A stretch of DNA of 64,000 nt, from contig JABDBI010000002.1 of NCBI GenBank assembly GCA_013288705.1, positions 880 through 64,879 of the forward strand. Direction: 5' to 3'. Position numbers and translations under genes: made by a program. Shown here one piece after another: positions 1 to 13,126 of the stretch. The notes under the pieces were generated by a model, which was given only the letters and a program-made list of their open reading frames with translations, was not told the origin of the DNA and made no database searches. Numbering within the stretch: the stretch's first letter is position 1; each line of letters opens with the position of its first letter. The DNA is from Methanobacteriota archaeon. GTDB lineage: Bacteria; Myxococcota; UBA727; JABDBI01.

Positions 1-1182
1 AAATAACGCATTTTCATCGCCGCGCACCATTTCCAAAGCTGTCAGATAGAATTCTCTATCTAAGTGCGGTTCAAGCATATTAAGGGCCCATAGATTGGTC
101 TCGGTCTCTTCTATAGTACAGCGGTTCTTGCTCGGATCTCGCCCTATGCTTCCACGAGCAATATGGCCAATCTCATGTAGTAAGACGAATGCTTGAAGAG
201 CTTTAGGCAAAGTATCCCGATAAAGAATATGATAGCAAGTACCTTCGGCATAGACCAGCGACGCACAATTGAGATTACTAGCAGGCACTGCCCTAACGGA
301 TGCTACCCGATATCGATTTAAGAGTGTCGATGTTAAACTCTCCAGTGTCACGCTCTTTCTTTCGTCGACGTATTTGGTGTAGAGAGAGGCAAGTGATACG
401 TCATCATGAATTGAGCCAATCACTTCCCCAAACTCACCAATTTGAATTTGCCCGTCTGCGCCAATCACCAAGGGAGGATATTTGCTGCCACGACGTTTTT
501 TGCCTGCTTTCATATCATACTGTGGAATAGCCACCCACTCACCATCGTGGTTATACTTTTGGCAAATGCCCACGATATGCTGTTTTTCTTCTGCGCTGAG
601 TGCGAGCTTTTCTATATCGCTGCCGCTTTCTTCCCAAAAAGCAACCTTCACCTTGTACAAGCCCAGTTTCTTTGCAAGGGCAAGAATATTGTCCAGGTCC
701 CGCCAATTTCCCTTGTGGCAACAGATAGCCAAGTTGGCCTTTAGCCCACTATTCTGAATCGCCTCAATCGATCGCAAAACAGCTTCAAACACACCAGGCG
801 CTCGATATTTGCGATTTGTTTCTTCCGACGCACCATCTAAACTCACTTGCACACAGGGCAAACCAAGGGCCTTCAACCGACTTGCAATTGTCGGCGTAAT
901 TTCAATACCAGTAGCACCAAGCAAGGGCATGATACGGTACTGCTGCATGAGTGCTAAAATCTCGAACAGTTTTGGATGCAAAAGAGGGTCGCCGCCGGAA
1001 ATCGGCATCATATAAACGCGATGTAGGCGCGCTTCTTCAAGTATACGCGCCACGGCCGAGAACTCTAGTGCAAATTGATTGAGCTTACCCGAGCGAGTCA
1101 GAAAGCAGTGTCCGCAAGAAAGTTGGCAACTATAAGTAATATAGAGGCTCACAACGGGTGGCAAAAAGATACGACTAGCCAT
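1..1182 (-). CDS. radical SAM enzyme fused to a C-terminal HExxH (ImmA/IrrE M78-like) peptidase domain; 3' end runs off the left window edge
   Basis: Absent from the ORF track because it has no stop in the window. Manual translation from ATG 1182 is open for 394 codons. It gives MASRIFLPPVVSLYITYSCQLSCGHCF (CX3CX2C), GGDPLL, then LLHEIGHIARG...EETETNLWALNMLEP (HExxH plus downstream E..N..A..L.P pattern). The start overlaps the MFS stop by 8 nt (ATGGCTAG). Confidence 0.8.
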   Translation of the reverse strand, partial: MASRIFLPPVVSLYITYSCQLSCGHCFLTRSGKLNQFALEFSAVARILEEARLHRVYMMPISGGDPLLHPKLFEILALMQQYRIMPLLGATGIEITPTIASRLKALGLPCVQVSLDGASEETNRKYRAPGVFEAVLRSIEAIQNSGLKANLAICCHKGNWRDLDNILALAKKLGLYKVKVAFWEESGSDIEKLALSAEEKQHIVGICQKYNHDGEWVAIPQYDMKAGKKRRGSKYPPLVIGADGQIQIGEFGEVIGSIHDDVSLASLYTKYVDERKSVTLESLTSTLLNRYRVASVRAVPASNLNCASLVYAEGTCYHILYRDTLPKALQAFVLLHEIGHIARGSIGRDPSKNRCTIEETETNLWALNMLEPHLDREFYLTALEMVRGDENALF

Positions 1183-2422
1183 TGCTTAATTGCACACTTT
1201 TGGAAACTTGAGACGACGGAAGGAATAGCCAACATAGCAAAATCACTATGCCACCTAGCGCGGACACGATCGCGAATGCATCGGCATAGGCGGAACCATG
1301 TAGCAGCTTGCCACCGGCCACCATTGCCAGTGATGCAGCAATGGCACGTAACATAAAACACAGCGACATGACTGTCGTACGGCTTGGATGTCCAGCGGGA
1401 ATTTCCTTGTTGATGGCATAACGCACATAGGGATCGACAAGACCACGGATCATTTGGTGAATCACAATGGCTGAAAAGACCAAAGGCAATGCCGTACCGC
1501 CAAATAGGATCAATATCGATGAAGACAACATCAACACAATCACAAGCCAACCAAGCTTGAGGCCATCTGTTAACATCGAAGGAAGAAAACTAAAGCAATA
1601 CGCGCAAAAAGCAGCACATAAATTAAATCCTGCCATCATCCAACCAAACTCCGGCAATGAGACATTAAAACTACCTAGCATTGGCTGATAGAAATTGAAC
1701 CCAGCACGCAGAACACCAAAGCAAATCGCCGAAAATAAAATAACACTAAACACCGTGCGATTAGTAACCGCAAGTTTAACGCCAGTTCTCAAAATATGCC
1801 CAAATTCTTGAAACACCTTGGCTGCAACTTGTGGTGTTGGCTTAGCGCTCTCTTCGATGGTGTCATCCAAAAATAAAAGCGCAACGACCAGTGTACTCAG
1901 AAGTAAAATGCAGTCGATGGCCAGCGGCAACCGCAAGTCGAAGTCGCCTAAATATCCGCTGCTCAGACAAGCCAACGCTGAACTGACTAGGCCAAGAGAG
2001 GTGGCTCTCGACGCGAGCTGGAAAAAACGTCCCTTTTCGCCAATTTTATTCAAATTCTCGTACACAATTGCATTCAAATTACCACTGCTTAAGGCAGCAC
2101 CAAAAGAAAAGACCACCGCTGTAGCTAAAACAAATTCAAAACGATGCACAAAAAACAAACTAAGCATCGCGAGCAGATAAATGATTTTTCCAAGAATGAA
2201 CGCGCGCTTGCGGCCCATCATGTCAGACAGCGTTCCACATGGCACAGTGATAAGACAATTCAATAACAAGATCACCGAAAAAAACCATGACATCTGCTCA
2301 AACGTGAGACCAACGTATTTGAGGTAAAATTCAACCATGACAGAAGCAAGAAATATCTCAATTGAGAAAATAGCTTCCACATAAAGAACAATTTTAGACT
2401 GTTTGATAATATGCGCTTCCAT
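1175..2422 (-). CDS. MFS transporter (probable exporter of the cluster product)
   Basis: 415-aa ORF with multiple hydrophobic helices and an MFS motif-A-like GTLSDMMGRKRAF. It sits tightly between the two radical SAM genes. Confidence 0.8.
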   Translation of the reverse strand: MEAHIIKQSKIVLYVEAIFSIEIFLASVMVEFYLKYVGLTFEQMSWFFSVILLLNCLITVPCGTLSDMMGRKRAFILGKIIYLLAMLSLFFVHRFEFVLATAVVFSFGAALSSGNLNAIVYENLNKIGEKGRFFQLASRATSLGLVSSALACLSSGYLGDFDLRLPLAIDCILLLSTLVVALLFLDDTIEESAKPTPQVAAKVFQEFGHILRTGVKLAVTNRTVFSVILFSAICFGVLRAGFNFYQPMLGSFNVSLPEFGWMMAGFNLCAAFCAYCFSFLPSMLTDGLKLGWLVIVLMLSSSILILFGGTALPLVFSAIVIHQMIRGLVDPYVRYAINKEIPAGHPSRTTVMSLCFMLRAIAASLAMVAGGKLLHGSAYADAFAIVSALGGIVILLCWLFLPSSQVSKSVQLSNG

Positions 2423-2430
2423 AGATTCTC

Positions 2431-3453
2431 TTAGGCAAATAAGTTCTGCTGATAGAGGCTATAAGCCACATGGCATTTATTTTGGTGCACTGCGGAAAAA
2501 TCAGCTATTGATTTAGAACTGGCATCTTTCGGCCCCAGGCCACGCCATTTCAAAAACAGTGCGTGCTGCTTCCAAACGTGCGCAATATCCTCAGGCTTAT
2601 GGACAGGTGGCGTTCGGTCTTCTTCTAGCAAGATATCGCAAGCAGACAAGGAAAAGTCATTGTTGACAACCAAACTCGTCGTGCCAGCCCCGCACCCAAA
2701 TGTGGTGGTACAATTGGAACAGGCAGCCTCTTTTTTTGTTAAAAAAGCGCTATCGATCAAAACTTCAGGATATAAAGACTGCAATTCTTCAAGCTTCTTG
2801 CGCACCTGCAAAACGAGATCACGAGAGAGTAAGAATGATGTACCGAGTCCCTCACCTGTACCGATTGGTACAAACGCGCTGAGTTTGAGCTGCCTCACAC
2901 CGAGATCGCGCACAAGACGATGAATTTCGGTCACGTGTTCCGCATTGTGTTTCGAAATCGTAAAGGCCATCGATACCTGTGCACCTGCGTCACGCAAGGC
3001 CCGCGCACCGAGGAGAATGCGGTCGAACGTGCCTTTGCCGCGAACAGGATCGCTCAACTCCGGTGCATGTCCTTCAAGACTCACTTGAAACTGACGCGCA
3101 CCAGCGGCGACCAAAGCACTTGCTCGTTCAGGAGTGACCAGTGTTGCGTTGGTTGCAATTTTGACGCGAATACCCTGTGACGACGCGGCATGAACAATCT
3201 GCTCTAAGTCCCGCCGAACTAGCGGCTCACCACCCAGCAATACCAATCCAACCACTTTTTTCGATACAAAATAGTCAATAAATGACAGAATTTTATCTAA
3301 TGGTCCCTGTTTCGTATAATCCGTTAAATAGCAGTGCGTGCAGCGCAGGTTGCACTTGCCAGTAATCTGCCATTTAACGAAAAGTGGAAATTCGAGCCAT
3401 TCAATATGTTTGGGATTTGCGATCATGGCCCTGAGCTTGAGGATGACATGCAT
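2431..3453 (-). CDS. radical SAM / SPASM-type peptide-modifying enzyme
   Basis: GKCNLRCTHCY (CX3CX2C), GGEPLV, and a C-terminal auxiliary Cys cluster CSNCTTTFGCGAG...SLSAC...KCH. An alternative start at ATG 3426 gives an ATGA overlap with the stop of the upstream 43-aa ORF. Confidence 0.85.
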   Translation of the reverse strand: MHVILKLRAMIANPKHIEWLEFPLFVKWQITGKCNLRCTHCYLTDYTKQGPLDKILSFIDYFVSKKVVGLVLLGGEPLVRRDLEQIVHAASSQGIRVKIATNATLVTPERASALVAAGARQFQVSLEGHAPELSDPVRGKGTFDRILLGARALRDAGAQVSMAFTISKHNAEHVTEIHRLVRDLGVRQLKLSAFVPIGTGEGLGTSFLLSRDLVLQVRKKLEELQSLYPEVLIDSAFLTKKEAACSNCTTTFGCGAGTTSLVVNNDFSLSACDILLEEDRTPPVHKPEDIAHVWKQHALFLKWRGLGPKDASSKSIADFSAVHQNKCHVAYSLYQQNLFA

Positions 3454-3554
3454 CCTTCGACAAGAATAACCTCAAAATCTGGTGCCTCATCTGCGAGCTT
3501 CCGAGATGCTTCTCGTTCTTCATTTTCTATTATTGTGTTGTCGATGTCTAACAT
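3423..3554 (-). CDS. candidate RiPP precursor peptide (43 aa)
   Basis: Below the track cutoff. AGGAG lies 8 nt upstream of ATG 3554. Translation: MLDIDNTIIENEEREASRKLADEAPDFEVILVEGCMSSSSSGP, an acidic leader-like N-terminus with a Cys + Ser5 C-terminus. The TGA stop overlaps ATG 3426 of the rSAM gene. Confidence 0.6.
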   Translation of the reverse strand: MLDIDNTIIENEEREASRKLADEAPDFEVILVEGCMSSSSSGP

Positions 3555-3611
3555 GGTTTTTTCTCCTCTTCAAATGGCGGTAAAACTGCTGATACCTGCA
3601 ATCAGATGAAA

Positions 3612-3640
3612 TGCATAAAGGGAAAAAATCAACTGGTCAA
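3612..3640 (-). promoter_or_regulatory. possible sigma70-type promoter of the RiPP-like operon
   Basis: On the minus strand, TTGACC (3640-3635), a 17-nt spacer, then TATGCA (3617-3612), about 55 nt upstream of the precursor ATG. The -10 is weak. Confidence 0.25.
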
Positions 3641-3743
3641 TATCTGCTGCCGGTTGTTAACTTCCCTTATGGGCGTATGCAGTTATATGGGGGCTCAAAC
3701 AGTTTGAACGAATCTTACCCATCTTTCGACAAAGTTAGTCAGA

Positions 3744-4370
3744 ATGGGCAAGTATATTAGCATAGGCGAGGCCGCCAAATTATTGGGAGTGTCCACCAAG
3801 ACTCTACGTCGATGGGAGGTCCAGGGGAAGCTCAAGTCCACTGAACGCACCGTTGGTGGTCAGCGGCGCTATGATATTTGTGGCTTGCGCCCACACAAGC
3901 GACAGCAGGGTGATGTCAATCGGCTTACGCTCGCATATGCACGCGTGTCAAGCCATGATCAAAAGTCCGATCTCGAGCAACAAAAAGACATGCTTCAGAT
4001 GTACTGTGCCGCACAAGGGTGGTCGTTTGAAATTGTATCAGATCTTGGTTCTGGCATGAATTATCAAAAGCGAGGTCTCCGTCGGATTTTGAACCAAATT
4101 ATCGATGGGGAGGTTGAGCGACTTGTGCTCACACATAAAGACCGACTCTTGCGTTTTGGCGCTGAGCTGGTCTTTTCAATCTGTGCGTCCAAAGGAACGG
4201 AGGTCGTGATGATCAATCGCGGCGATGAGCCGACTTTTGAAGAAGAATTGGCCCAAGATGTGCTCGAAATTATCACGGTCTTTTCGGCGAGATTATATGG
4301 TTCGAGAAGCCACAAGAACAAAAAACTGATCGAGAACTTGAAGACAGCCGCTGAGGCCGCCCATGCCTGA
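3744..4370 (+). CDS. tnpA: IS607-family transposase TnpA (MerR-HTH + serine recombinase)
   Basis: N-terminal HTH ISIGEAAKLLGVSTKTLRRWEVQGKL, followed by the resolvase core AYARVSSHDQKSDLEQQ. Confidence 0.9.
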   Translation: MGKYISIGEAAKLLGVSTKTLRRWEVQGKLKSTERTVGGQRRYDICGLRPHKRQQGDVNRLTLAYARVSSHDQKSDLEQQKDMLQMYCAAQGWSFEIVSDLGSGMNYQKRGLRRILNQIIDGEVERLVLTHKDRLLRFGAELVFSICASKGTEVVMINRGDEPTFEEELAQDVLEIITVFSARLYGSRSHKNKKLIENLKTAAEAAHA

Positions 4371-5811
4371 AGCAATTGCTGTCATCAAGCTCCGGCTAAA
4401 TCCCGACGCCGAGACCGCGCGGATTTTGGATGGGCAATCCAAGAAGTGCAACTGGCTCTACAATCAGCTTTTGGAAAAAGCGAATGCACTGCGAGTGTCA
4501 TATCGTGAGCAGCCGAGCGAAGAAATTAGCAAAGTGCTCTACACCAGCCGCGGTTTGAGAAATCTGGTACCCGGCTTCAAAGAGGAAAATCCCTTTTTGA
4601 AAACAGTTCACTCGTCACCACTCAAGAACGCAGCGCTCCGATTAACCGATTGCATCCAAAGTTATCAAAAATCGCGCAAAGGACAGCGCAAAGGCAAAAC
4701 TGGCTGGCCGAAGTTTCGATCCTGGAAAGCACAGTGGTTTTCTTTGTTTTACGACGAACCTAACAAAGGCTTTTGTATCGAGGGAAGTATCCTGCGCCTG
4801 TCTTTAGGCAGCGGATTAGACAGAAAGGACCGAGCTCTGCAAATTGCTCTTCCAGAAGCCTCTGCACTGAAGGGGAAGTCTGTCCGAAACCTGCGCATCG
4901 TGAAGCAGGCAGGTGTCTTCAGCACAGTGATGACGGTGGTTCGGCAAATGCCGGAGCAGAAACAAATTAAGCGCGTGATTGCCTTTGATCCAAACCACAA
5001 GAACTTTGCCTACGGCGTAGACAATGAAGGCAAAGCGATTGAGATAGAAAAACCCTGGTGGGTGAAGCGCTATGACCAACGCATCGATGAGATAAAATCT
5101 CTACGAGACAAAAAACAAAAGAAATCTCGCCTAATTCCAATTCTTGATGACCAAGGTAATCCAACCGGTAAGCAACGATTTGATGCTTCACGCCAGTATA
5201 AAAAGCTACAAACAACCTTAGAGCGAGCGCTCTCAAAACGCCGAGAACAGGTAAAGGTGTTTTTGTTCACGCTCGCCAACAGCCTATACCGCCAATATGA
5301 TTTGGTGGGTGTAGGTGATTACACTCCGAACGGAGGAGGAATCACGACGCCCATGCGCAGGGCGATGAACAATCAATCGTTGATTGGTCAGTTCAAGATA
5401 ATTGCAAAATGGTCTGCAGAGAAATCTGGTAAACATTTTATGGAGTTTGACGAAAGTGGGACGACCAGAACGTGCAACGTCTGCCATGATGTTGTGCAAG
5501 AAGGTTTGAGTCCGAGCATCCGCACGTGGATATGTGCAGGTTGTAATACCTGGCACATCCGCGATGAGAACGCAGCGCTCAACGGAATCACGCGCATCCT
5601 GCGGGAAGTGCAAGAAAGAAACCCAAAGCAATTTGGGTTAGTGCCCAGCTCGGGCCCCGTTTCTGTAAAGGAACGGTGGGCCTGGCGAGTTCGTCCTAGT
5701 GGCGTGTTACGCACGTCGCGGGGGATGGGCGGCTTTGTAAAAAGCAATCGCCAGGAAATTAAACGGAGGGCGTGGAAGCCCTCCATCCAGGCTGACCAAG
5801 TTTGTGCATAG
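4363..5811 (+). CDS. tnpB: TnpB (IS200/IS605-IS607 OrfB, RuvC-like RNA-guided nuclease family)
   Basis: RuvC-I VIAFDPNHKNFAYGV (D209), zinc finger CNVCHD...CAGCNTWH, and RuvC-III HIRDENAALNG (D401). The canonical RuvC-II position reads YDLVGVGDY, with G318 where Glu is expected. Confidence 0.9.
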   Translation: MPEAIAVIKLRLNPDAETARILDGQSKKCNWLYNQLLEKANALRVSYREQPSEEISKVLYTSRGLRNLVPGFKEENPFLKTVHSSPLKNAALRLTDCIQSYQKSRKGQRKGKTGWPKFRSWKAQWFSLFYDEPNKGFCIEGSILRLSLGSGLDRKDRALQIALPEASALKGKSVRNLRIVKQAGVFSTVMTVVRQMPEQKQIKRVIAFDPNHKNFAYGVDNEGKAIEIEKPWWVKRYDQRIDEIKSLRDKKQKKSRLIPILDDQGNPTGKQRFDASRQYKKLQTTLERALSKRREQVKVFLFTLANSLYRQYDLVGVGDYTPNGGGITTPMRRAMNNQSLIGQFKIIAKWSAEKSGKHFMEFDESGTTRTCNVCHDVVQEGLSPSIRTWICAGCNTWHIRDENAALNGITRILREVQERNPKQFGLVPSSGPVSVKERWAWRVRPSGVLRTSRGMGGFVKSNRQEIKRRAWKPSIQADQVCA

Positions 5812-5850
5812 ATGCATAGGTTTGTCTAAGTTTGGAAGAGCGGTAAGTAG
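5620..5850 (+). ncRNA. putative omega-RNA (reRNA) scaffold overlapping the tnpB 3' end
   Basis: Placed by analogy to characterised TnpB loci. The tnpB tail is low-complexity and basic. A perfect 7-bp hairpin GGAGGGC-gtggaa-GCCCTCC lies at 5765-5784. Boundaries are not determined. Confidence 0.25.
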
Positions 5851-5870
5851 CGCATGATGAAAAAACGCAA

Positions 5871-5998
5871 CCAAAAAGCGCGCCGAACGTGGTGGTTTTT
5901 CGGGGAGAATGTTTGTAACAACGGCGGAACATTTTGATGGAAGCGTTGGTGCGAACTACTGTCTCGCGCAGCCGGACAAATATCCTGAAGCAGATTAG
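5871..5998 (+). pseudogene. orphan 3' fragment (41 codons + stop) of a MazG-like pyrophosphohydrolase gene
   Basis: Translates KKRAERGGFSGRMFVTTAEHFDGSVGANYCLAQPDKYPEAD*. This is nearly identical to the C-terminus of the intact gene ending at 6947. No upstream coding part is present. Confidence 0.75.
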
Positions 5999-5999
5999 A
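5871..5999 (+). repeat. left copy of 129-bp direct repeat
   Basis: Aligned by eye to 6820-6948 with 5 mismatches in 129 nt. Confidence 0.9.
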
Positions 6000-6008
6000 G
6001 GAGGATTC

Positions 6009-6404
6009 ATGACCCAAACATGTCCCTGCGGCTCGAACAATGCCTACCTCAACTGCTGCGGTGCTTTTATCTCCGGGGCACGGCGTCCAGAAACACCAGA
6101 GCAATTGATGCGCTCGCGCTACACCGCCTACACCCAAGCCAATATCGACTACATATCCCGCACAATGAAAGGCCCAGCGATGGTGGGATTTGATCCTGAA
6201 GCTGCACGCGCATGGGCGGAGGGGAACGCATGGTTGAGGTTGGATGTGCTCAACGCCAGCGTGAAAGGCACGACGGGATTCGTTGAATTCGCGGCGCACT
6301 ATGCTTACCAGAATAAAGATCACATCATACACGAACGCAGTGAATTTCGTCTTGAAGATGGCCAGTGGTATTACACTCGAGGCCATTCGCGTACAAGGCG
6401 TTAA
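6009..6404 (+). CDS. ychJ: YchJ-family SEC-C motif protein (UPF0225)
   Basis: MTQTCPCGSNNAYLNCCG (SEC-C metal-binding motif)...LMRSRYTAYT...GQWYYTRG. GAGGAGG lies 5 nt upstream of ATG 6009. The track's longer N-terminus (5934) runs through the duplicated fragment. Confidence 0.8.
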   Translation: MTQTCPCGSNNAYLNCCGAFISGARRPETPEQLMRSRYTAYTQANIDYISRTMKGPAMVGFDPEAARAWAEGNAWLRLDVLNASVKGTTGFVEFAAHYAYQNKDHIIHERSEFRLEDGQWYYTRGHSRTRR

Positions 6405-6548
6405 TAGAGTCGGTTCAGCACCTTCGCATCAGCACGGTGTGGGACTTCAACAAACTTCGGATGTTGTCACGTCTTCCTCATTTTCTTGCCCGCGTTCGTA
6501 ATTAAGGTTCCTGTTGACAAAAGTCCACCGATGATTGACTCCCTCGTA

Positions 6549-6947
6549 ATGAAAAAACGTGTCTTCATTCAAAATAAATTATGGCGCGACCATACCCCAA
6601 AAATGCTGGAGCAAACCGGTTCGGTAATTCACACTAAATACCTCGACGACAATGCATTCAATCACCACCTTCGCCTCAAATTACGAGAAGAAGCCGACGA
6701 GGTGATTTCCGCTGAATCTCAGCAAGAACTGATGAACGAGCTTGCAGATGTGCTTGAAGTTATTGATGCGTTGTGTGCGCTTCATGAGATGTCGCAAAGT
6801 GACATCGTAGCGATTCAAGCCAAAAAGCGCGCCGAACGTGGCGGTTTTTCGGGGAGAATGTTTGTAACAACGGCGGAACATTTTGATGGAAGCGCGGGTG
6901 CGAACTACTGCCTCGCACAGCCGGACAAATATCCTGAAGCAGATTAG
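6549..6947 (+). CDS. MazG-like / phosphoribosyl-ATP pyrophosphohydrolase-like nucleotide pyrophosphohydrolase
   Basis: MKKRVFIQNKLWRDHTPKML...LREEADEV...ELADVLEVIDAL, the all-alpha NTP-PPase pattern. The start is uncertain (6486 TTG, 6531 or 6549). Confidence 0.65.
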   Translation: MKKRVFIQNKLWRDHTPKMLEQTGSVIHTKYLDDNAFNHHLRLKLREEADEVISAESQQELMNELADVLEVIDALCALHEMSQSDIVAIQAKKRAERGGFSGRMFVTTAEHFDGSAGANYCLAQPDKYPEAD

Positions 6948-6948
6948 A
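6820..6948 (+). repeat. right copy of 129-bp direct repeat (3' end of the intact MazG-like gene)
   Basis: See 5871-5999. Confidence 0.9.
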
Positions 6949-6961
6949 AACAGGAGCTGGC

Positions 6962-7219
6962 ATGGAGATTTTTCGAGACGATGTGAAGAATGAATTTTCT
7001 GTGGTTGTCGAGGGCAAGATGTGTAGGCTTCGTTTTCGACAGGTAGATGAGCGGACGGTGGATTTTTTCAGTACGTTTGTTCCGAGCGAATTGCGAGGTC
7101 GGGGAATCGCGGGGAGATTGGTTGAGTTCGCAGTGCATGACGCGCGAGGGCGCGGGCTTACGATTATCCCGACTTGCTCTTACGTGCGGGCGTGGTTGGA
7201 GCGTGAGGGTGGTGGTTAG
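6962..7219 (+). CDS. small GNAT-like acetyltransferase (YjdJ type)
   Basis: 85 aa, FVPSELRGRGIAGRLVEFAVHDARGRGLTIIPTCSY. This is the acetyl-CoA-binding R/Q-x-x-G-x-A-like motif of short GNAT proteins. Confidence 0.65.
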   Translation: MEIFRDDVKNEFSVVVEGKMCRLRFRQVDERTVDFFSTFVPSELRGRGIAGRLVEFAVHDARGRGLTIIPTCSYVRAWLEREGGG

Positions 7220-7659
7220 CATCCCGTGGAAATTCTCGCCTTGATGGTCGCAATCCCCGTCAATAGCGCAATCAAACCGAACATCACGCCAACCCCGATG
7301 GCAAAATAGACAAAACCAAGCACACAAAGCAGCGCAAAGGATATGCTGGCCGCCCAGGCAATTGGCAGCACTGGTTTAAGTTGATTCGGTGGCAATCCAC
7401 CGAGGACCCAAAGAACCACAATCCCGAGGATGAGCAGCGCGGATACCGAAAGACCATTGCCAAGCCAGAAGTCGTACCAGGTGCAGTGTGCTCCTTGCCA
7501 GATGAAGTGAACGGATTTCATTTTTGAGAAAACTTCGTCTGCTTCAGGCCCGGAGGATCGTCCGTGCATAACGGTTGCTAACATGCCACCGAACGTGTGA
7601 CCGAGGGCGCCGAGGATTAGGAGATAGGAGCTGATGCGGTAGAGGTTGAAGTATTTCAT
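7216..7659 (-). CDS. hypothetical integral membrane protein
   Basis: Four hydrophobic segments. GGAAG lies upstream of ATG 7659. The track's longer form starts at 7764. Confidence 0.55.
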   Translation of the reverse strand: MKYFNLYRISSYLLILGALGHTFGGMLATVMHGRSSGPEADEVFSKMKSVHFIWQGAHCTWYDFWLGNGLSVSALLILGIVVLWVLGGLPPNQLKPVLPIAWAASISFALLCVLGFVYFAIGVGVMFGLIALLTGIATIKARISTGC

Positions 7660-7881
7660 CAGGTGCTTCCGATTGCTTGTGTGATCGCCGCCATTGTACG
7701 CCATTCTGGATTTCCATTGTAAGAGAATCTGCGGCTGGCTTCTATTTTCTGCCGGCGGCTGCAAGGCATGCGAGATACCTTCTCTAAAAAGTAAGTTTCT
7801 TGTTCTGACTACTGCAAAATCTAAAGTACACTAACACTGGTTGGTAATGCTGCTAATCATGCGTTTTCAGGCTATCTGAAA

Positions 7882-9783
7882 GTGATTAAAAAATTGCGCA
7901 TCAAAATGTTGAAGTTGACAATCGGAGATATGCAACAACTCGCGACGTTTCGCGGCGGAAAATGCCTTTCGAAAGACTTCAAGAATAATACTACGACACT
8001 TAGATGGGAATGCAAAAAGGGCCACGTCTGGGAAGCGATTCCAAAAAGCATTCGTAGAGGGAGTTGGTGCCCCAGCTGTGCGGGTCGTCGGAAAACGATC
8101 GATGATATGAGGGCCTTTGCTAAAAGAAAGGGCGGCGATTGCCTGTCTGAGAAATATATTCGAGGCGATGTCCCACTTCGGTGGAAATGTTCGAAGGGAC
8201 ACATTTGGGAGGCCAAACCACAGTCTGTTCTTCATCAAACAAGCTGGTGCCATATCTGTTCAAAAAGGCAACGCTACACACTTGACGATATGATTGCGCT
8301 GGCAAAAGAAAGGGGTGGGCGTTGCCTTTCGAAAAAATACGCCAACGTCTTCACCAAGATGAAATGGGAGTGCAGTCAAAAGCACAGATGGTCTGTAGCC
8401 GCCACGGGCGTTATCAGAGGCAGTTGGTGCCCCAAATGCGACACAAGCTTTGGTGAAGAGCTCACAAGGGCATTCTTTGAGGCTTTGTTTAACACACATT
8501 TTCCTTCCGCATGGCCAGATTGGCTAAGGAGCGCGAAGGGGCACGTTCTCGAGCTCGACGGATATAACGAGCCTTTGAAACTCGCTTTTGAACACCAAGG
8601 CAGCCATCATTACAGCACCAGTTCGAGTTTCATTTTTTCCGACGAGGATCTCAAGAATCGTAGGGCCACCGATAGGCGAAAGCGGTATTTGTGTAGGAAG
8701 CTTGGTGTGCGGTTGATAGCAGTGCCGCAAGTGCCTCGCTATCAACCAATACAAACTCTTGAATCCTTCATCAGAAAGAAGTGTCACACTTTGGGAGTCA
8801 CTGTGCCCCTGCCAGAAGGTGAGCTTAGGGTCAATTGGAAAAAAGTATACTGCCCGGATTCCCAGCGCTATTTAGAAGAGCTGAGGAACCTCGCCAGGGC
8901 AAGGAATGGCAAATTGTTGTCGGACAGATATCTCGGCATGCAGACTAAATTGCGATGGCAGTGCGACGACGGGCATGAATGGGCGGCCCAACCTGCCAGC
9001 ATAAAAGCAGGAACTTGGTGTGCATTTTGCAGCACACACCCACCAGCTTCAATTGCAGATATGCATGAACTGGCTGCTAGATATCACGGTAGATGCCTCT
9101 CAAAAATTTACAAAAACGCGACGACAAAAATCAAATGGGAATGTGAATTTGGTCATCGGTGGAAGTCGTTGGCCAGAAATGTGAAAGCTGATCATTGGTG
9201 TCCCAGATGTGGTGGTCGACAAAAGTATACGCTCAAAGAAATGCAACAATTCGCAAGACAATTGGGCGGAGCATGCCTTTCAAACGAATATCTTGGGATT
9301 AGTGAGAAACTAAAATGGAAGTGTGCTCAGGGGCATATTTGGGATGCGCCGCCCGCGCAAATTGTTGGAAAACACTGGTGCCTTGCATGTGCAGCCAAGG
9401 AGCGAGGGAGAAAGCGAAGGCTGACCATCGAAGAAATGCATGAGATTGCTGCAAGCAGAGAGGGAAAGTGCTTATCAAAGGAATATCTAACAGCGCAAAC
9501 ACACCTCGAGTGGGAGTGCAAAAAAGGTCACAAGTGGTGGGCCAAGCCGAACAATATAAAAAATGGCAAGTGGTGTCCGTTTTGTTTTGGTCGCGGTAAA
9601 ACGATTGTCGATATGAAAAGACTTGCCACTGAACGGGAAGGTTGCTGCCTCTCAGAGGAATATTTCGGCATGCATGCGAAGCTACGTTGGCAGTGTGAAA
9701 AAAAGCATGTCTGGGAGGCCACGCCTGCGCATATTTTGCATGGAGGGACCTGGTGTCCTTTTTGCGTTGGTCGAAAGCCATGA
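7882..9783 (+). CDS. multi-zinc-ribbon repeat protein with central PD-(D/E)xK-like nuclease-type core
   Basis: Eight ~60-aa repeats of the form GG.CLS..Y.....L.W.C..GH.W.A....I..G.WCP.C, three N-terminal and five C-terminal. They flank a core with VLELDGYNEPLKLAFEHQGSHHY...RLIAVP. Starts at GTG 7882 or ATG 7906. Confidence 0.75.
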   Translation: MIKKLRIKMLKLTIGDMQQLATFRGGKCLSKDFKNNTTTLRWECKKGHVWEAIPKSIRRGSWCPSCAGRRKTIDDMRAFAKRKGGDCLSEKYIRGDVPLRWKCSKGHIWEAKPQSVLHQTSWCHICSKRQRYTLDDMIALAKERGGRCLSKKYANVFTKMKWECSQKHRWSVAATGVIRGSWCPKCDTSFGEELTRAFFEALFNTHFPSAWPDWLRSAKGHVLELDGYNEPLKLAFEHQGSHHYSTSSSFIFSDEDLKNRRATDRRKRYLCRKLGVRLIAVPQVPRYQPIQTLESFIRKKCHTLGVTVPLPEGELRVNWKKVYCPDSQRYLEELRNLARARNGKLLSDRYLGMQTKLRWQCDDGHEWAAQPASIKAGTWCAFCSTHPPASIADMHELAARYHGRCLSKIYKNATTKIKWECEFGHRWKSLARNVKADHWCPRCGGRQKYTLKEMQQFARQLGGACLSNEYLGISEKLKWKCAQGHIWDAPPAQIVGKHWCLACAAKERGRKRRLTIEEMHEIAASREGKCLSKEYLTAQTHLEWECKKGHKWWAKPNNIKNGKWCPFCFGRGKTIVDMKRLATEREGCCLSEEYFGMHAKLRWQCEKKHVWEATPAHILHGGTWCPFCVGRKP

Positions 9784-9801
9784 TTCGGCTGGACTGCACC
9801 C

Positions 9802-9823
9802 CCTCCGGCTGGAGGTTTTTTTT
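9802..9823 (+). terminator. rho-independent terminator
   Basis: CCTCC-ggct-GGAGG followed by T8, 19 nt after the stop at 9783. Confidence 0.7.
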
Positions 9824-9995
9824 GGAAAGTTGCATGACTTTTTGAATGCCTCAAGAAAATTCAGGTGTTGGCAATAAAAGACTAGCCACCCTCACAATCA
9901 TAGACAGGGTCACTTTAGTTGGCAAAGAGAGCGCTTCTGGATATACTTTAATTGAGAATCAAAGTTAACGCTGCTCGCGTTTGGACTAAGCACTT

Positions 9996-10844
9996 ATGGG
10001 AATTTTTAACTGGTTGGATAGAGTCATTCAGCCCCAAAAAAAAGAAACTAGCCCCAGTCTTATTCTGACGATCGCTGTTCCAACTTGCGAGGACTGTGGC
10101 ACGGGTGCAAAAGCCGATGGCAGAAGGGCAGAGTGCCCAAGTTGTCATCATGCGCTAAAAAAAATCCCAGAGCGAAAGCAAAAATGCCCTTTCTGTCAGA
10201 AATTTATGCTTGTCCGAACTCAACCAAACGATCGCGTTCGAGTCATTGTCACAGAAGATGGGGCTCAAAAAATTGATGACGAATGGGACATGATTACCGG
10301 CAGACTCGACGCCCAACTCGCCAAAAAAAAAGATTTTGAAGATGAAAAGGAGTACTTAAAAAATAAGCGGCATGGCCATGAACCCTCAGACAATGATGTG
10401 AATTGGAGCATGTTTAACAAAGACCTAAGGAAACAGGCAAGCAACAAAAACTGGGGAGGATATCGAAACACAAGGTCTCAAATGGCAGCTTTGCTAGCGT
10501 CGGAAAATAAATTAAAGGCTGCCTTAGCAACTTACCTGGAAGTATGTTACTGGGACTTGAACTTCCTAGCACTCTTGGATGCCAAAGAAAAAGAGCTGGC
10601 CGATTTTTTTCAGGATGGTCGCCCACATCAACGGAAAGACCCCCCTGGGCATTCCGGCGCAATGCTTGCTCCAGGAATCGTTAAAATAGTTGGTAAACTG
10701 GCCAAGAAATTGACCTTGCAAGAAGAAGAGATTCATCTAATTTTCGTTGAAGGTAATAGCGGCGTAGCGAAAAACTTCCGGTTGCCTCGCTCCGTTGAAG
10801 AGTGTTGGCCGGAGCTTGAAGAGTCTCTTTCTAAATTCGGCTAG
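9996..10844 (+). CDS. hypothetical protein with N-terminal CxxC zinc-ribbon motifs
   Basis: 282 aa with CEDCG...CPSCHH...CPFCQ near the N-terminus. The rest is Lys/Glu-rich and helical. No family recognised. Confidence 0.6.
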   Translation: MGIFNWLDRVIQPQKKETSPSLILTIAVPTCEDCGTGAKADGRRAECPSCHHALKKIPERKQKCPFCQKFMLVRTQPNDRVRVIVTEDGAQKIDDEWDMITGRLDAQLAKKKDFEDEKEYLKNKRHGHEPSDNDVNWSMFNKDLRKQASNKNWGGYRNTRSQMAALLASENKLKAALATYLEVCYWDLNFLALLDAKEKELADFFQDGRPHQRKDPPGHSGAMLAPGIVKIVGKLAKKLTLQEEEIHLIFVEGNSGVAKNFRLPRSVEECWPELEESLSKFG

Positions 10845-11040
10845 GCTGATAATTGGCGAATTGGGCGTCAGATACAAGGCACGCACTAGCATTTGTTTGA
10901 GCCAGTAAGTCGCATCCCATATAACGCGCGAGCAAACAATCCTGAAATACAGAATGCGTCGACTTCGCATTGGCAGTGGACAATGACTGGCAAAGCTGAT
11001 CGCTGCCGCTCGCGTCATCCAAAATGAGGATGAATGGATC

Positions 11041-11132
11041 GGGCACGTACTAACACTTGCTACTACTAGAACCTCCACTTACTCAGCTCCCTTAGCATGT
11101 AGTCGAGTAAGAGTACGTGATAGTGTGTGCCC
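11041..11132. repeat. 92-bp imperfect palindrome built from two inverted copies of the island repeat core
   Basis: Outer arms are gggcacGTacta (11041-11052) and tagtGTgtgccc (11121-11132). Inner arms are cttactc (11078-11084) and gagtaag (11105-11111). The right half aligns to the reverse complement of the repeats at 11648 and 12483. Confidence 0.75.
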
Positions 11133-11301
11133 GACATGTTCACCTCGGCGCTCGGGTTTTCAGAACTATGACTACACCCTTTCAATCCGCCCAATACCCG
11201 ATGTGGCGCAAACGGCTTGCCCGTATAATTCAATTAAAAAACGCGCAAACAGCAGGCGGATTTCCCGTCGCTGCAAGCTCGCTCATATCGGGGGGATATT
11301 T

Positions 11302-11565
11302 ATGTTGGATCGAATAAGAGCAGTGACTTATGTTTTAAAGGATCGCGGTCGAATCGCAGGTCTTGGTGGCAATTGGGGGACGACAACTGAAAGCGAAGCC
11401 ATTGCTGACATCGAATTGGGGCGCCACATCTATATTGCTGTCAGCGGCGATTGTGAGTCGAAGGTAGAAGTAGTAAACGGTGAGACAAGAAAGTACCTAA
11501 GGACAAATCGTGATCGTACCCCCAAAGACAATCTTGATTGGCTCCCTGCCTGCAACATGACCTAA
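11302..11565 (+). CDS. DUF3892 domain protein
   Basis: 87 aa ending ...VEVVNGETRKYLRTNRDRTPKDNLDWLPAC. GGGGGA RBS before ATG 11302. A perfect TATAAT lies at 11224-11229. Confidence 0.7.
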   Translation: MLDRIRAVTYVLKDRGRIAGLGGNWGTTTESEAIADIELGRHIYIAVSGDCESKVEVVNGETRKYLRTNRDRTPKDNLDWLPACNMT

Positions 11566-11571
11566 AAGGGC

Positions 11572-11600
11572 AGGCCAGGCGTCGCTGCGGCGCTTGGCCT
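11572..11600. terminator. strong hairpin between convergent genes (no U-tract)
   Basis: aggccaggcgtcg-ctg-cggcgcttggcct, a 13-bp stem including 2 G-U pairs. Confidence 0.3.
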
Positions 11601-11647
11601 TGGATGGACGATAGGAATAGGCACAAATAGTGAAAATGTCGAATGAA

Positions 11648-11720
11648 ATGAAAGAATGAAAGTGCCGAGCACACACTAACACTTGCTCGACTGCATCGCG
11701 GGCACTCAAGCTAAAACCAA
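11648..11720 (+). repeat. 73-nt structured intergenic repeat, copy B
   Basis: Tandem TGAAAG half-sites 8 nt apart, then gagcaCACACTAACACTtgctc (5-bp stem) nested in AGTGCC...GGCACT. Identical to copy C at 58 of 73 positions by hand alignment. Confidence 0.8.
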
Positions 11721-11738
11721 TGAATGCCAAGTCGGGAT

Positions 11739-12344
11739 TCAAAACAAAATGCCAGCGTTTTCCCGGATTTCCCTCGACAGACCACGCATCTTACCGACAG
11801 CGAGACCTTCATGACCTCCCGCACGAATCCCTTCCACCTCCTTGCGAAACGCAAGCAGCTCAGTCACCAGCGGGAGCTCGTCTACGCGCAGCGCGAAGTC
11901 GGCAAGACGGCGTTTGCCGAGCCGTCGGTCAATAACCGCCAGAGCTCGCATAACGACGGAATCATCGTCCAACGCCTGCTCTATGGAAAGGTTTAGGTAT
12001 CCTTCTAACTCATAGTAGAGGTTGTCGTAGGTCATCGACCCCTGACGCAATAAGACGGCGTTTGCTTGGCGCTGTGCATCATGGTAGCCCGCGTTTTGAG
12101 CCGGGTCGTTGTAGTCCGCACACTTGTTAGCTTCTCGAAGGGCGGTCTGTAATTTCCACTCGGCCATCCAATGTCCTAGCGTCGCGAAAGAAGCGATCTC
12201 CCGTTTATCGAGAGTAATCCACCCTCGACCTTCGCTGTCGTGGGAATGTCTGTAGCGTGCAGCATGAACCGAAACACGGCCCTGAACGCTTCGGGCAAAA
12301 CCGTTTTCAATGCGCTTTTTTAATTGTGTCCATTGCATATGCAT
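11739..12344 (-). CDS. SF0329-family-like hypothetical protein
   Basis: MHMQWTQLKKRIENGFARSVQGRVSVHAARYRHSHDSEGRGWITLDKREI matches my recollection of the N-terminal signature of that family. Function unknown. Confidence 0.6.
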   Translation of the reverse strand: MHMQWTQLKKRIENGFARSVQGRVSVHAARYRHSHDSEGRGWITLDKREIASFATLGHWMAEWKLQTALREANKCADYNDPAQNAGYHDAQRQANAVLLRQGSMTYDNLYYELEGYLNLSIEQALDDDSVVMRALAVIDRRLGKRRLADFALRVDELPLVTELLAFRKEVEGIRAGGHEGLAVGKMRGLSREIRENAGILF

Positions 12345-12482
12345 CCTTTCCTAAACAATTTGATGTCGTATCGCAACAAATTGTGACTCGCACAGCGTGC
12401 GTGTGCCCCAGATACGCGCCTAACGCACTAGCACCTGCTAGAGCCTAAGCCGCTAATGGTTTGCTTTAAGAACTGGAATCAA

Positions 12483-12555
12483 GTGAAAGAGTGAAAGTGT
12501 CGGGCCCACACTAACACTTGCTCGATGACAGCGCGTGCACCCGATCCGAAACCAA
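12483..12555 (+). repeat. 73-nt structured intergenic repeat, copy C
   Basis: Same architecture as copy B. It ends 1 nt before the hicB stop codon. A degenerate extra core (gcctaacgcactagcacctgctaga) lies at 12418-12441. Confidence 0.8.
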
Positions 12556-12876
12556 CTAAGCAGCCAACTTCGCACTAACAAGACGATTCAACGACACATG
12601 TGCCTCATGAGCCTCGACAGCGAGCCTTCGATGTACGTCCTGTGGAACGCGAACCTGAAATTTGCCACTAAAGTGTTTCTTTGACAGCGGCTCTGGAATT
12701 TTCTCTTTTCTGATGTGCAGGTCCTCTAAAACTTCTGCCACAACCTTCCGAATTCCTCTAAAGGCGCCGTCTTGTGTTTTTGCTAGCCAACTTAGACTCG
12801 GAAACTCAGCACATAACCCAACATATTCGTCGTCTTCTTCAGACCACACAACGCGATAGCAATATTTGTCATGCAT
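12556..12876 (-). CDS. hicB: HicB-family antitoxin
   Basis: YCYRVVWSEEDDEYVGLCAEFPSLSWLAKT (HicB N-domain) and a C-terminal RHH-like GKFQVRVPQDVHRRLAVEAHEAHVSLNRLV. ATG 12876 overlaps the hicA stop. Confidence 0.85.
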   Translation of the reverse strand: MHDKYCYRVVWSEEDDEYVGLCAEFPSLSWLAKTQDGAFRGIRKVVAEVLEDLHIRKEKIPEPLSKKHFSGKFQVRVPQDVHRRLAVEAHEAHVSLNRLVSAKLAA

Positions 12877-13126
12877 GGCTCTCTTCCTCCTTCCTCTCAA
12901 TTGCCTTGAGCACTTGCCTAACTTGATAAGCCTTGGCTTTTCCTTTATCGTTCTGAATATTCACTCTTGGATCGCCTTCCCATGGCGTCTTAAAAACCAT
13001 GTGACTACTCCCAGACTGACGCGGCTTCCCGAAATAATGCTCGCAAATCTTGGCAAGGTCAGAAAAGCGTATGCTTTTTGGGCTATTACGCATTTTCTCC
13101 AAGATTTCTTCAAACTTTTCACCCAT
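12869..13126 (-). CDS. hicA: HicA-family toxin (mRNA interferase)
   Basis: MGEKFEEILEKMRNSPKSIRFSDLAKICEHYFGKPRQSGSSHMVFKTPWEGDPRVNIQ, including the conserved GSH. It lies upstream of and overlaps hicB. Confidence 0.8.
   Translation of the reverse strand: MGEKFEEILEKMRNSPKSIRFSDLAKICEHYFGKPRQSGSSHMVFKTPWEGDPRVNIQNDKGKAKAYQVRQVLKAIERKEEESHA

Follow-up and report, generated by a model that had tools for sequence, protein, structure and literature searches.

A short gene in a radical SAM operon as the predicted precursor of an undescribed family of modified peptides

What is the substrate of two radical S-adenosylmethionine (SAM) enzymes that are encoded behind a reading frame of only 43 codons? 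The genes in question lie on the minus strand of contig JABDBI010000002.1 (assembly GCA_013288705.1), within a stretch of 64,000 nt that we analyzed as a whole and refer to as the window. Here, a short open reading frame (ORF) is followed by genes for a radical SAM enzyme (rSAM1), a major facilitator superfamily (MFS) transporter, and a second radical SAM enzyme (rSAM2), inside which the window ends at position 1 (Table 1). The ORF could encode a peptide that the enzymes modify, as in the formation of RiPPs (peptides that ribosomes synthesize and that are modified after translation). Alternatively, it may be a chance or regulatory upstream ORF, and the enzymes would then act on a small molecule moved by the transporter. 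The initial annotation of this DNA preferred the former and described the genes as a compact, RiPP-like operon in which a hidden precursor is accompanied by two radical SAM enzymes and an MFS exporter. Homologous loci support this central reading. We estimate a probability of roughly 75% that these genes form a self-contained, horizontally mobile cassette making a radical SAM-modified RiPP of an undescribed family.

The 43-codon gene and its conserved core

The ORF encodes MLDIDNTIIENEEREASRKLADEAPDFEVILVEGCMSSSSSGP and is a called gene in the source genome. An AGGAG motif precedes its ATG with an 8-nt spacer (AAAAAACC), and its stop codon is overlapped by the start codon of rSAM1 in an ATGA junction at positions 3426 to 3423. 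The genes farther downstream are tightly coupled as well: 8 nt separate the rSAM1 stop codon from the MFS gene, the stop codon of which overlaps the rSAM2 start at position 1182 (ATGGCTAG). The initial annotation had described the ORF, its AGGAG motif, the ATGA junction, and the tight coupling of the downstream genes, and its statements on the sequence are all confirmed. The rSAM1 protein is identical to database protein P0001, and rSAM2 lacks 21 of its 415 residues because of the window edge (full-length protein, P0158). A search of the window against Rfam gave no match, and a scan for promoters and terminators did no better than on shuffled sequence.

Four parts can be distinguished in the peptide: a variable N terminus, a recognition-like motif (PDFEVILV), an invariant core (G-C-M-S-S), and a variable tail (SSSGP). 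The block F-x-x-[I/V]-x-V-x-G-C-x-[S/N/T]-S is found in a short ORF on the rSAM1 strand in 18 of the 18 family loci with upstream DNA, a set that includes the window and a short contig of the same organism (L086). The motif occurs once in the 64-kb window and is absent from all six frames of 995 kb of control DNA, which comprised 80 unrelated radical SAM loci found by the generic pattern CNLRCxHCY. A profile of four precursor peptides matched 19 database peptides of 43 to 72 amino acids, each labeled “hypothetical protein” and each containing the block. The initial annotation had proposed beforehand to look among rSAM1 homologs for a conserved short upstream ORF with a Ser-rich C terminus; such an ORF, with a Cys and a Ser-rich end, is present in all the homologous loci, from B. 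cereus and B. mycoides, a cyanobacterium, Burkholderia, Pandoraea, Salinarimonas, and metagenomes.

In an alignment of 16 peptides, the F, the G, the C, and the last S are invariant. The position two before the Cys varies (E, D, A, or S), and the tail after the S-S pair ranges from 2 to 39 residues and also differs in charge. The conserved residues are not encoded by conserved codons: four codons are found for the invariant Gly, two for the Cys, and six, drawn from both Ser codon families, for the last Ser. Since synonymous codons vary at these invariant positions, selection acts on the amino acid sequence of the precursor. We rejected a chance ORF on the grounds of this codon turnover and of the motif counts in family and control loci. 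As judged from these sequence comparisons, the 43-codon ORF is a genuine gene, beyond what chance would give; conservation and codon turnover further argue that it is translated and that its product is the precursor for an undescribed family of peptides modified by enzymes.

Across cassettes, the precursors range from 25 to 71 amino acids, and those of Bacillus, at 25 amino acids, have only five residues ahead of the motif. Bacillus mycoides Gnyt1 carries three tandem, near-identical 25-amino-acid precursor genes (L099, 4515 to 4847; NZ_CP020744.1) with the sequence MVK[V/A]QKPDF[I/V]VISVEGCMNSTKMEM, none of which is annotated in RefSeq. No NCBIfam model matches any of the 16 precursor peptides, and the window peptide lacks the hallmarks of the pyrroloquinoline quinone (PQQ), mycofactocin, sulfatase maturase, sactipeptide, and ranthipeptide types. 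The earlier view that it does not match known precursor types holds.

Radical SAM enzymes, recognition protein, and transporter

A search of 5.8 billion proteins recovered about 50 clusters of rSAM1 homologs at E values below 1e-55, followed by a gap to 1e-25 that gives the family a sharp boundary. Where the source of a member is named, it is the Bacillus cereus group, a cyanobacterial metagenome-assembled genome, Salinarimonas, one of several Burkholderia species, or Pandoraea. The CxxxCxxC motif of the SAM cluster is formed by C25, C29, and C32, and only three further cysteines are invariant: C245 (GCGAG), C263 (SACD), and C318 (GCH). In radical SAM enzymes of this kind, a full SPASM domain (PF13186/TIGR04085) has a seven-Cys motif that binds two auxiliary 4Fe-4S clusters; a twitch domain, as in SkfB, BtrN, MoaA, or BlsE, is a shortened C-terminal domain that binds one. 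The SPASM model PF13186 matches neither rSAM1 of the window nor the roughly 50 family members in precomputed hits; hits beyond the family boundary do match it. Because PF13186 is unmatched and only three extra cysteines are conserved, we class the C-terminal domain as twitch-like, with one putative auxiliary cluster. A full SPASM domain was rejected on the same evidence, and the label “rSAM/SPASM” of the initial annotation has to be replaced.

The AlphaFold2 model of rSAM1 has a predicted local distance difference test score (pLDDT) of 92.6. Its nearest folds in the PDB are SkfB (TMq 0.71; root-mean-square deviation, 3.3), SuiB, BlsE, CteB, PqqE, and the anaerobic sulfatase-maturating enzyme (anSME). 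A profile sequence search agrees with this ranking, with SkfB as the best match at 6e-25, and MoaA is also among the top matches. rSAM1 begins directly with the radical SAM core and has no N-terminal RiPP recognition element (RRE), a domain that SkfB, SuiB, and CteB carry. Neither radical SAM enzyme reaches any curated NCBIfam cutoff; the best model for both is MftC (TIGR03962), with 115 bits for rSAM1 and 88.5 bits for rSAM2 against a cutoff of 265. This search, which the initial annotation had called for, matched no curated non-RiPP family.

The core of rSAM2 keeps the CxxxCxxC motif (residues 19 to 26) along with SGGDP and is related to that of rSAM1 (hhalign E value, 2e-37; 26% identity). 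Its best PDB sequence matches are SkfB (7.6e-21) and PqqE. Because the rSAM2 alignment contains no conserved cysteine outside the SAM cluster, this enzyme probably has no auxiliary cluster. Its last ~110 residues include the invariant H336, E337, and H340 (HEIGH, an H-E-x-x-H motif) and E359 within E-x3-N-L-W. PF06114 (Peptidase_M78) is matched by 24 of 25 rSAM2 family members at E values up to 1, the best being 6.8e-8. The PDB gave three weak sequence matches to the C terminus, and IrrE proteins are the two best among them. From these motifs, the C terminus is predicted to be an M78 (ImmA/IrrE-type) zinc peptidase domain, and the HEIGH motif bears out the peptidase-like fusion described initially. 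A search of 1.84 billion representatives yielded 53 proteins matching rSAM2 at E values below 1e-30; those inspected comprise about 26 fused forms and many forms of ~270 amino acids without the peptidase. At least some of the latter are probably explained by a split such as that in the metagenomic locus L091, described below. We found no radical SAM-M78 fusion described in the literature, and such a fusion would be a new solution for leader removal.

An ORF of 81 to 106 amino acids, taken as a called gene or read by hand, stands immediately after rSAM2, or after its split-off peptidase, in the nine homologous cassettes with downstream DNA. The small protein has no match in Pfam, PF05402 included, and a sequence-profile search of the PDB returned nothing meaningful. 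The AlphaFold2 model of one homolog (P0147, built from 15 sequences; pLDDT 92.2) consists of a short strand, a three-stranded sheet, and three helices. Its best PDB folds are lasso peptide B1 proteins, namely the leader-bound 6JX3 and TbiB1 (5V1V and 5V1U), with TMq values of 0.73 to 0.77 over the full length, followed by the RREs of TigE and SuiB, McbB, and PqqD. All of the top six matches are leader-binding RREs aligned over the full length; winged-helix DNA-binding domains (ToxR) are also matched, with lower TM-scores. According to this predicted fold, the small protein of the relatives is a discrete RRE. The earlier remark that no PqqD or RRE domain is evident thus holds for the window and fails for the homologous cassettes, where an RRE-fold ORF follows rSAM2.

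The transporter weakly resembles drug-efflux MFS families in NCBIfam. Every homologous cassette that is complete enough to be judged has an MFS gene, and we presume from its sequence that the transporter is an exporter.

Distribution and surroundings of the cassette

The common gene order is short ORF, rSAM1, MFS transporter, rSAM2 (392 to 416 amino acids), and small protein (81 to 106 amino acids). It occurs in B. cereus (L081), a cyanobacterium (L082 and L083), Burkholderia (L084 and L085), Salinarimonas (L087), Pandoraea (L088), and two metagenomic loci (L089 and L090), and a family-specific metagenome scan added eight further loci. One locus has another order: in L091 (JGI Ga0207156_10150, 3578 to 7550), the precursor is followed by the rSAM2 core (273 amino acids), the M78 peptidase (143 amino acids) as a separate protein, the RRE, rSAM1, and the MFS transporter. 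This permuted order, together with the split of rSAM2 from its peptidase, indicates a functional unit rather than inherited synteny. Distantly related bacteria share the five modules as a set, with at least two gene orders. The genes flanking the cassette differ in every genome, from which we conclude that it is self-contained. The copy of B. mycoides Gnyt1 is located on a 460-kb plasmid, where RefSeq labels its genes only as “radical SAM protein,” “MFS transporter,” “radical SAM protein,” and “hypothetical protein.”

Several neighborhoods have features of their own. In L090 (ENA PASC20-1 scaffold_6, 40.7 kb; 1 to 13011), the cassette stands amid phage-type genes, namely a T7-like terminase large subunit, DNA_Packaging_2, Terminase_2, a Peptidase_S74 tail spike, and an integrase, which suggests prophage or phage carriage of this copy. 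Searches of viral contigs (IMG/VR, by family-specific alignment) and of GenBank phage proteins gave no relatives. A class I SAM-dependent methyltransferase gene lies divergently upstream of the cassette in B. mycoides (L099) and B. cereus (L081). The cassette comes after metK, the SAM synthetase gene, in Burkholderia (L084/L085, 5047 to 6234), and in Pandoraea (L088, 10062 to 12993), it is followed by genes for a TonB-dependent receptor and a HemS/ChuX heme uptake protein. The metK and TonB/HemS neighbors are conserved nowhere else and are probably coincidental.

In the window, the cassette genes have a GC content of 0.44 to 0.48 and a GC content at third codon positions (GC3) of 0.36 to 0.47, compared with 0.512 ± 0.024 and 0.528 ± 0.039 for 22 other ORFs. 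The initial annotation had read a GC difference between the MFS gene and the adjacent radical SAM gene as a hint of mosaic origin. The values that it gave are roughly right, but the mosaic does not hold: GC3 is nearly equal in rSAM1 (0.473), MFS (0.457), and rSAM2 (0.452), and the MFS gene owes its lower total GC to first codon positions, i.e., to amino acid composition. We therefore rejected internal mosaicism. Since GC3 is uniform within the cassette and lower than in its neighbors, the cassette looks as if it was acquired as a whole.

An IS607-type element on the opposite strand begins 190 bp upstream of the precursor gene. This neighbor and the lower GC content are both consistent with lateral acquisition. 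The junction between the cassette and the element is also found in the independent short assembly L086. Farther along, a 129-nt direct repeat with 96% identity has its first copy just after tnpB and its second at the 3' end of a nearby ORF; because the first copy adjoins tnpB, we read the repeat as a gene fragment duplicated beside the insertion sequence.

Two other ORFs of the window are unusual. One encodes a protein of 633 amino acids with about nine tandem, zinc-ribbon-like repeats of ~65 to 70 amino acids (...GG.CLS..Y......L.W.C..GH.W.A.P..I..G.WCP.C) and has no NCBIfam match; the other encodes a protein of 1,799 amino acids, again without an NCBIfam match, at an E value of ≤1e-5. The remainder resembles an ordinary Gram-negative chromosome, with MutL, a resistance-nodulation-division (RND) pump, and a Wzc-like kinase. 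All window proteins tested form singleton clusters, which indicates a host without close sequenced relatives in the collection.

Table 1. Positions of the cassette genes and of other features in the 64,000-nt window
Feature	Positions	Strand	Basis
Shine-Dalgarno motif AGGAG	3567-3563	minus	read from sequence
Precursor peptide gene (43 aa)	3554-3423	minus	ORF and translation; called gene P0126
rSAM1, radical SAM enzyme (331 aa)	3426-2431	minus	PF04055, 3.9e-25
MFS transporter (415 aa)	2422-1175	minus	PF07690, 4.2e-26
rSAM2, radical SAM core (~residues 1-300)	1182-283	minus	PF04055, 9.5e-16
rSAM2, predicted C-terminal M78 (ImmA/IrrE-type) zinc peptidase domain	282-1	minus	HEIGH and E359-x3-N-L-W
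IS607-type tnpA (MerR helix-turn-helix/serine resolvase)	3744-4370	plus	
IS607-type tnpB (Cas12f-like TNB domain), overlapping tnpA	4363-5811	plus	
129-nt direct repeat, first copy	5871-5999		
129-nt direct repeat, second copy	6820-6948		
ORF with the second repeat copy at its 3' end	6486-6947		
ORF with tandem zinc-ribbon-like repeats (633 aa)	7882-9783	plus	
Long ORF (1,799 aa)	49809-55208	plus	

Proposed function and relation to known systems

How might these components work together? By analogy with PqqD and MftB, which serve PqqE and MftC, the RRE would bind the F-x-x-I-x-V segment of the precursor as a strand and present the G-C-x-S-S core to both enzymes, which have no RRE of their own. 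The three-Cys auxiliary cluster of rSAM1, probably with one open iron site, could hold the substrate thiolate. rSAM1 would then act at the invariant Cys, most plausibly by forming a thioether to a nearby carbon as SkfB and CteB do, and the modification is thus probably centered on this residue. rSAM2 may add a second radical modification, its M78 domain would remove the leader, and the MFS transporter would export the product.

Several points weigh against a radical SAM-modified RiPP made in this way. The chemistry is deduced from distant relatives, with 17 to 21% identity to solved enzymes, and a single Cys is unusual for sactipeptides and ranthipeptides. The variable residue two before the Cys means that, from the alignment, no cross-link partner can be named. 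The RRE assignment derives from a predicted fold, with modest Foldseek E values (2e-3). The window ends inside rSAM2, so that an RRE gene would fall just past position 1, and a search for RRE homologs returned no protein from the 119-kb source contig. Finally, the rSAM2 protein of the window scores 16.7 to 19.1 bits for PF06114, for which the Pfam cutoff is 22.

The precursor might instead be mostly scaffold, with its internal G-C-x-S-S core built into a small molecule that is then excised, much as for PQQ, mycofactocin, or pantocin A. A discrete RRE serving RRE-less enzymes is the architecture of PqqD/PqqE and MftB/MftC, and MftC is the best NCBIfam match of both enzymes; moreover, the precursors are tiny, down to 25 residues in Bacillus, where just five precede the motif, conservation is confined to about five core residues with a tail that is free in length and charge, and export would be by an MFS protein with no peptide ATP-binding cassette (ABC) transporter. 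However, excision requires two cuts, and one peptidase domain is present; no oxidoreductase or glycosyltransferase that could act as a partner is conserved beside the cassette in the loci examined, and the patchy, mobile distribution and the exporter resemble those of a secreted secondary metabolite more than those of a cofactor. We regard excision as possible but doubtful. We are equally tentative about its corollary, a third peptide-derived small molecule beside PQQ and mycofactocin, in which two radical SAM enzymes and a PqqD-like chaperone would turn Gly-Cys-x-Ser-Ser into a sulfur-containing scaffold to be excised and exported by the MFS protein.

Less probable still is that rSAM1 acts as anSME does, converting the core Cys or a Ser to formylglycine, or performing another dehydrogenation, with no thioether formed. 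The core does offer a Cys and an invariant Ser, and anSME is among the sequence and fold matches of rSAM1, but it ranks below SkfB, SuiB, BlsE, CteB, and PqqE and its full SPASM domain holds two auxiliary clusters, compared with the three extra cysteines of rSAM1. The precursors lack the C/S-x-P-x-R motif, and no sulfatase occurs in any cassette locus examined; a sulfatase maturase next to a sulfatase was the finding that the initial annotation had named as speaking against a RiPP. We rejected membership of the sulfatase maturases for want of the motif, the sulfatase neighbor, and the full SPASM domain. As for the possibility raised at the outset, that the short ORF is no substrate at all, the RRE fold is close to the winged helix, with ToxR domains appearing in the fold search, and no Pfam or NCBIfam model recognizes the peptide or the small protein. 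Yet the amino acid sequence is conserved across phyla through synonymous turnover that includes switches between Ser codon families, the motif is in every family locus but no control locus, the gene is present as three tandem copies in B. mycoides, a peptidase domain is fused to rSAM2, and the top six folds are leader-binding RREs over their full length. We consider this explanation extremely improbable and prefer the radical SAM-modified RiPP.

A literature search, in which subscription journals were outside coverage, found no description of the family, including in large compendia of RREs and radical SAM enzymes. One such compendium gathers discrete RREs via RRE-Finder or PF05402 (PMC10288494); this route would probably miss the cassette RRE because the latter does not match PF05402. 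On sequence grounds, then, we propose an undescribed radical SAM-RiPP family, marked by a precursor class that is new and by an unusual fusion of radical SAM and M78 domains. Uncharacterized radical SAM-RiPP families are numerous. Nevertheless, radical SAM enzymes with ribosomal peptides as substrates are a main source of new enzyme chemistry and antibiotic-like molecules, and this cassette is a minimal testable system: it consists of two enzymes, a chaperone, an exporter, and a short precursor whose invariant core has five residues. It occurs in tractable organisms of the B. cereus group and the Burkholderia cepacia complex, where current annotation overlooks it through generic RefSeq labels and uncalled Bacillus precursors.

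The cassette shares traits with several known systems. Sactipeptide and ranthipeptide enzymes such as CteB, PapB, and those of thuricin CD are thioether-forming members of the SPASM/twitch clade, and CteB is a full-length sequence and fold match. Precursors in those systems have several Cys, the enzymes have fused RREs and usually a full SPASM domain, and export is by ABC transporters; the cassette differs in its single core Cys, its twitch-like domain with three Cys, its separate RRE, and its MFS transporter. The NCBIfam sactipeptide maturase models (StsB, PapB, and AlbA) score far below cutoff. We rejected classical membership on these scores, the single core Cys, and the lack of a fused RRE in rSAM1. 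Clusters with two radical SAM enzymes are known (PMC12093266, PMC8188230).

The predicted peptidase shares the invariant HExxH motif and the downstream E-x3-N with ImmA/IrrE proteins. Known members of that group cleave repressors and are usually paired with helix-turn-helix proteins; in the cassette, the M78 domain forms one protein with a radical SAM core or, in L091, is the product of the next gene, and its presumed target is a RiPP leader.

Mycofactocin (MftA/MftB/MftC/MftE) offers a closer parallel in its discrete RRE chaperone, RRE-less radical SAM enzyme, short precursor, and separate peptidase step. The end of MftA, ...VSIDGMCGVY, may also resemble the ...I-x-V-E-G-C of cassette precursors. 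However, MftC has a full SPASM domain, the cassette precursors lack the C-terminal Gly-Val-Tyr, there are no equivalents of MftD or MftF, and an exporter is present. Membership was rejected on the scores of 115 and 88.5 bits against 265, the different precursor end, and the absence of MftB, MftD, MftE, and MftF neighbors. In the PQQ system, the RRE (PqqD) stands alone and the radical SAM enzyme (PqqE) has none of its own, and both proteins are among the sequence or fold matches; PqqA is similarly tiny, with a conserved block that starts K-P-x-F. Here, membership was rejected because PqqE (TIGR02109) scores 72 and 59 bits against 381 and because the Glu-x3-Tyr core, PqqB, and PqqC are missing.

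The sporulation killing factor system (SkfB/SkfA; PDB 6EFN) provides the best match for rSAM1 in sequence and fold and for rSAM2 in sequence. SkfB is a RiPP maturase with a twitch rather than a SPASM auxiliary domain and makes a single Cys-derived thioether. Identity to SkfB is 21%, its RRE is fused whereas that of the cassette is separate, and the precursors are unrelated; the cassette has, in addition, an MFS exporter and a further radical SAM enzyme with a fused peptidase. By analogy, the cassette would thus combine the logic of PqqADE and MftABC, i.e., a discrete RRE, an RRE-less radical SAM enzyme, and a tiny precursor, with an SkfB-like twitch enzyme.

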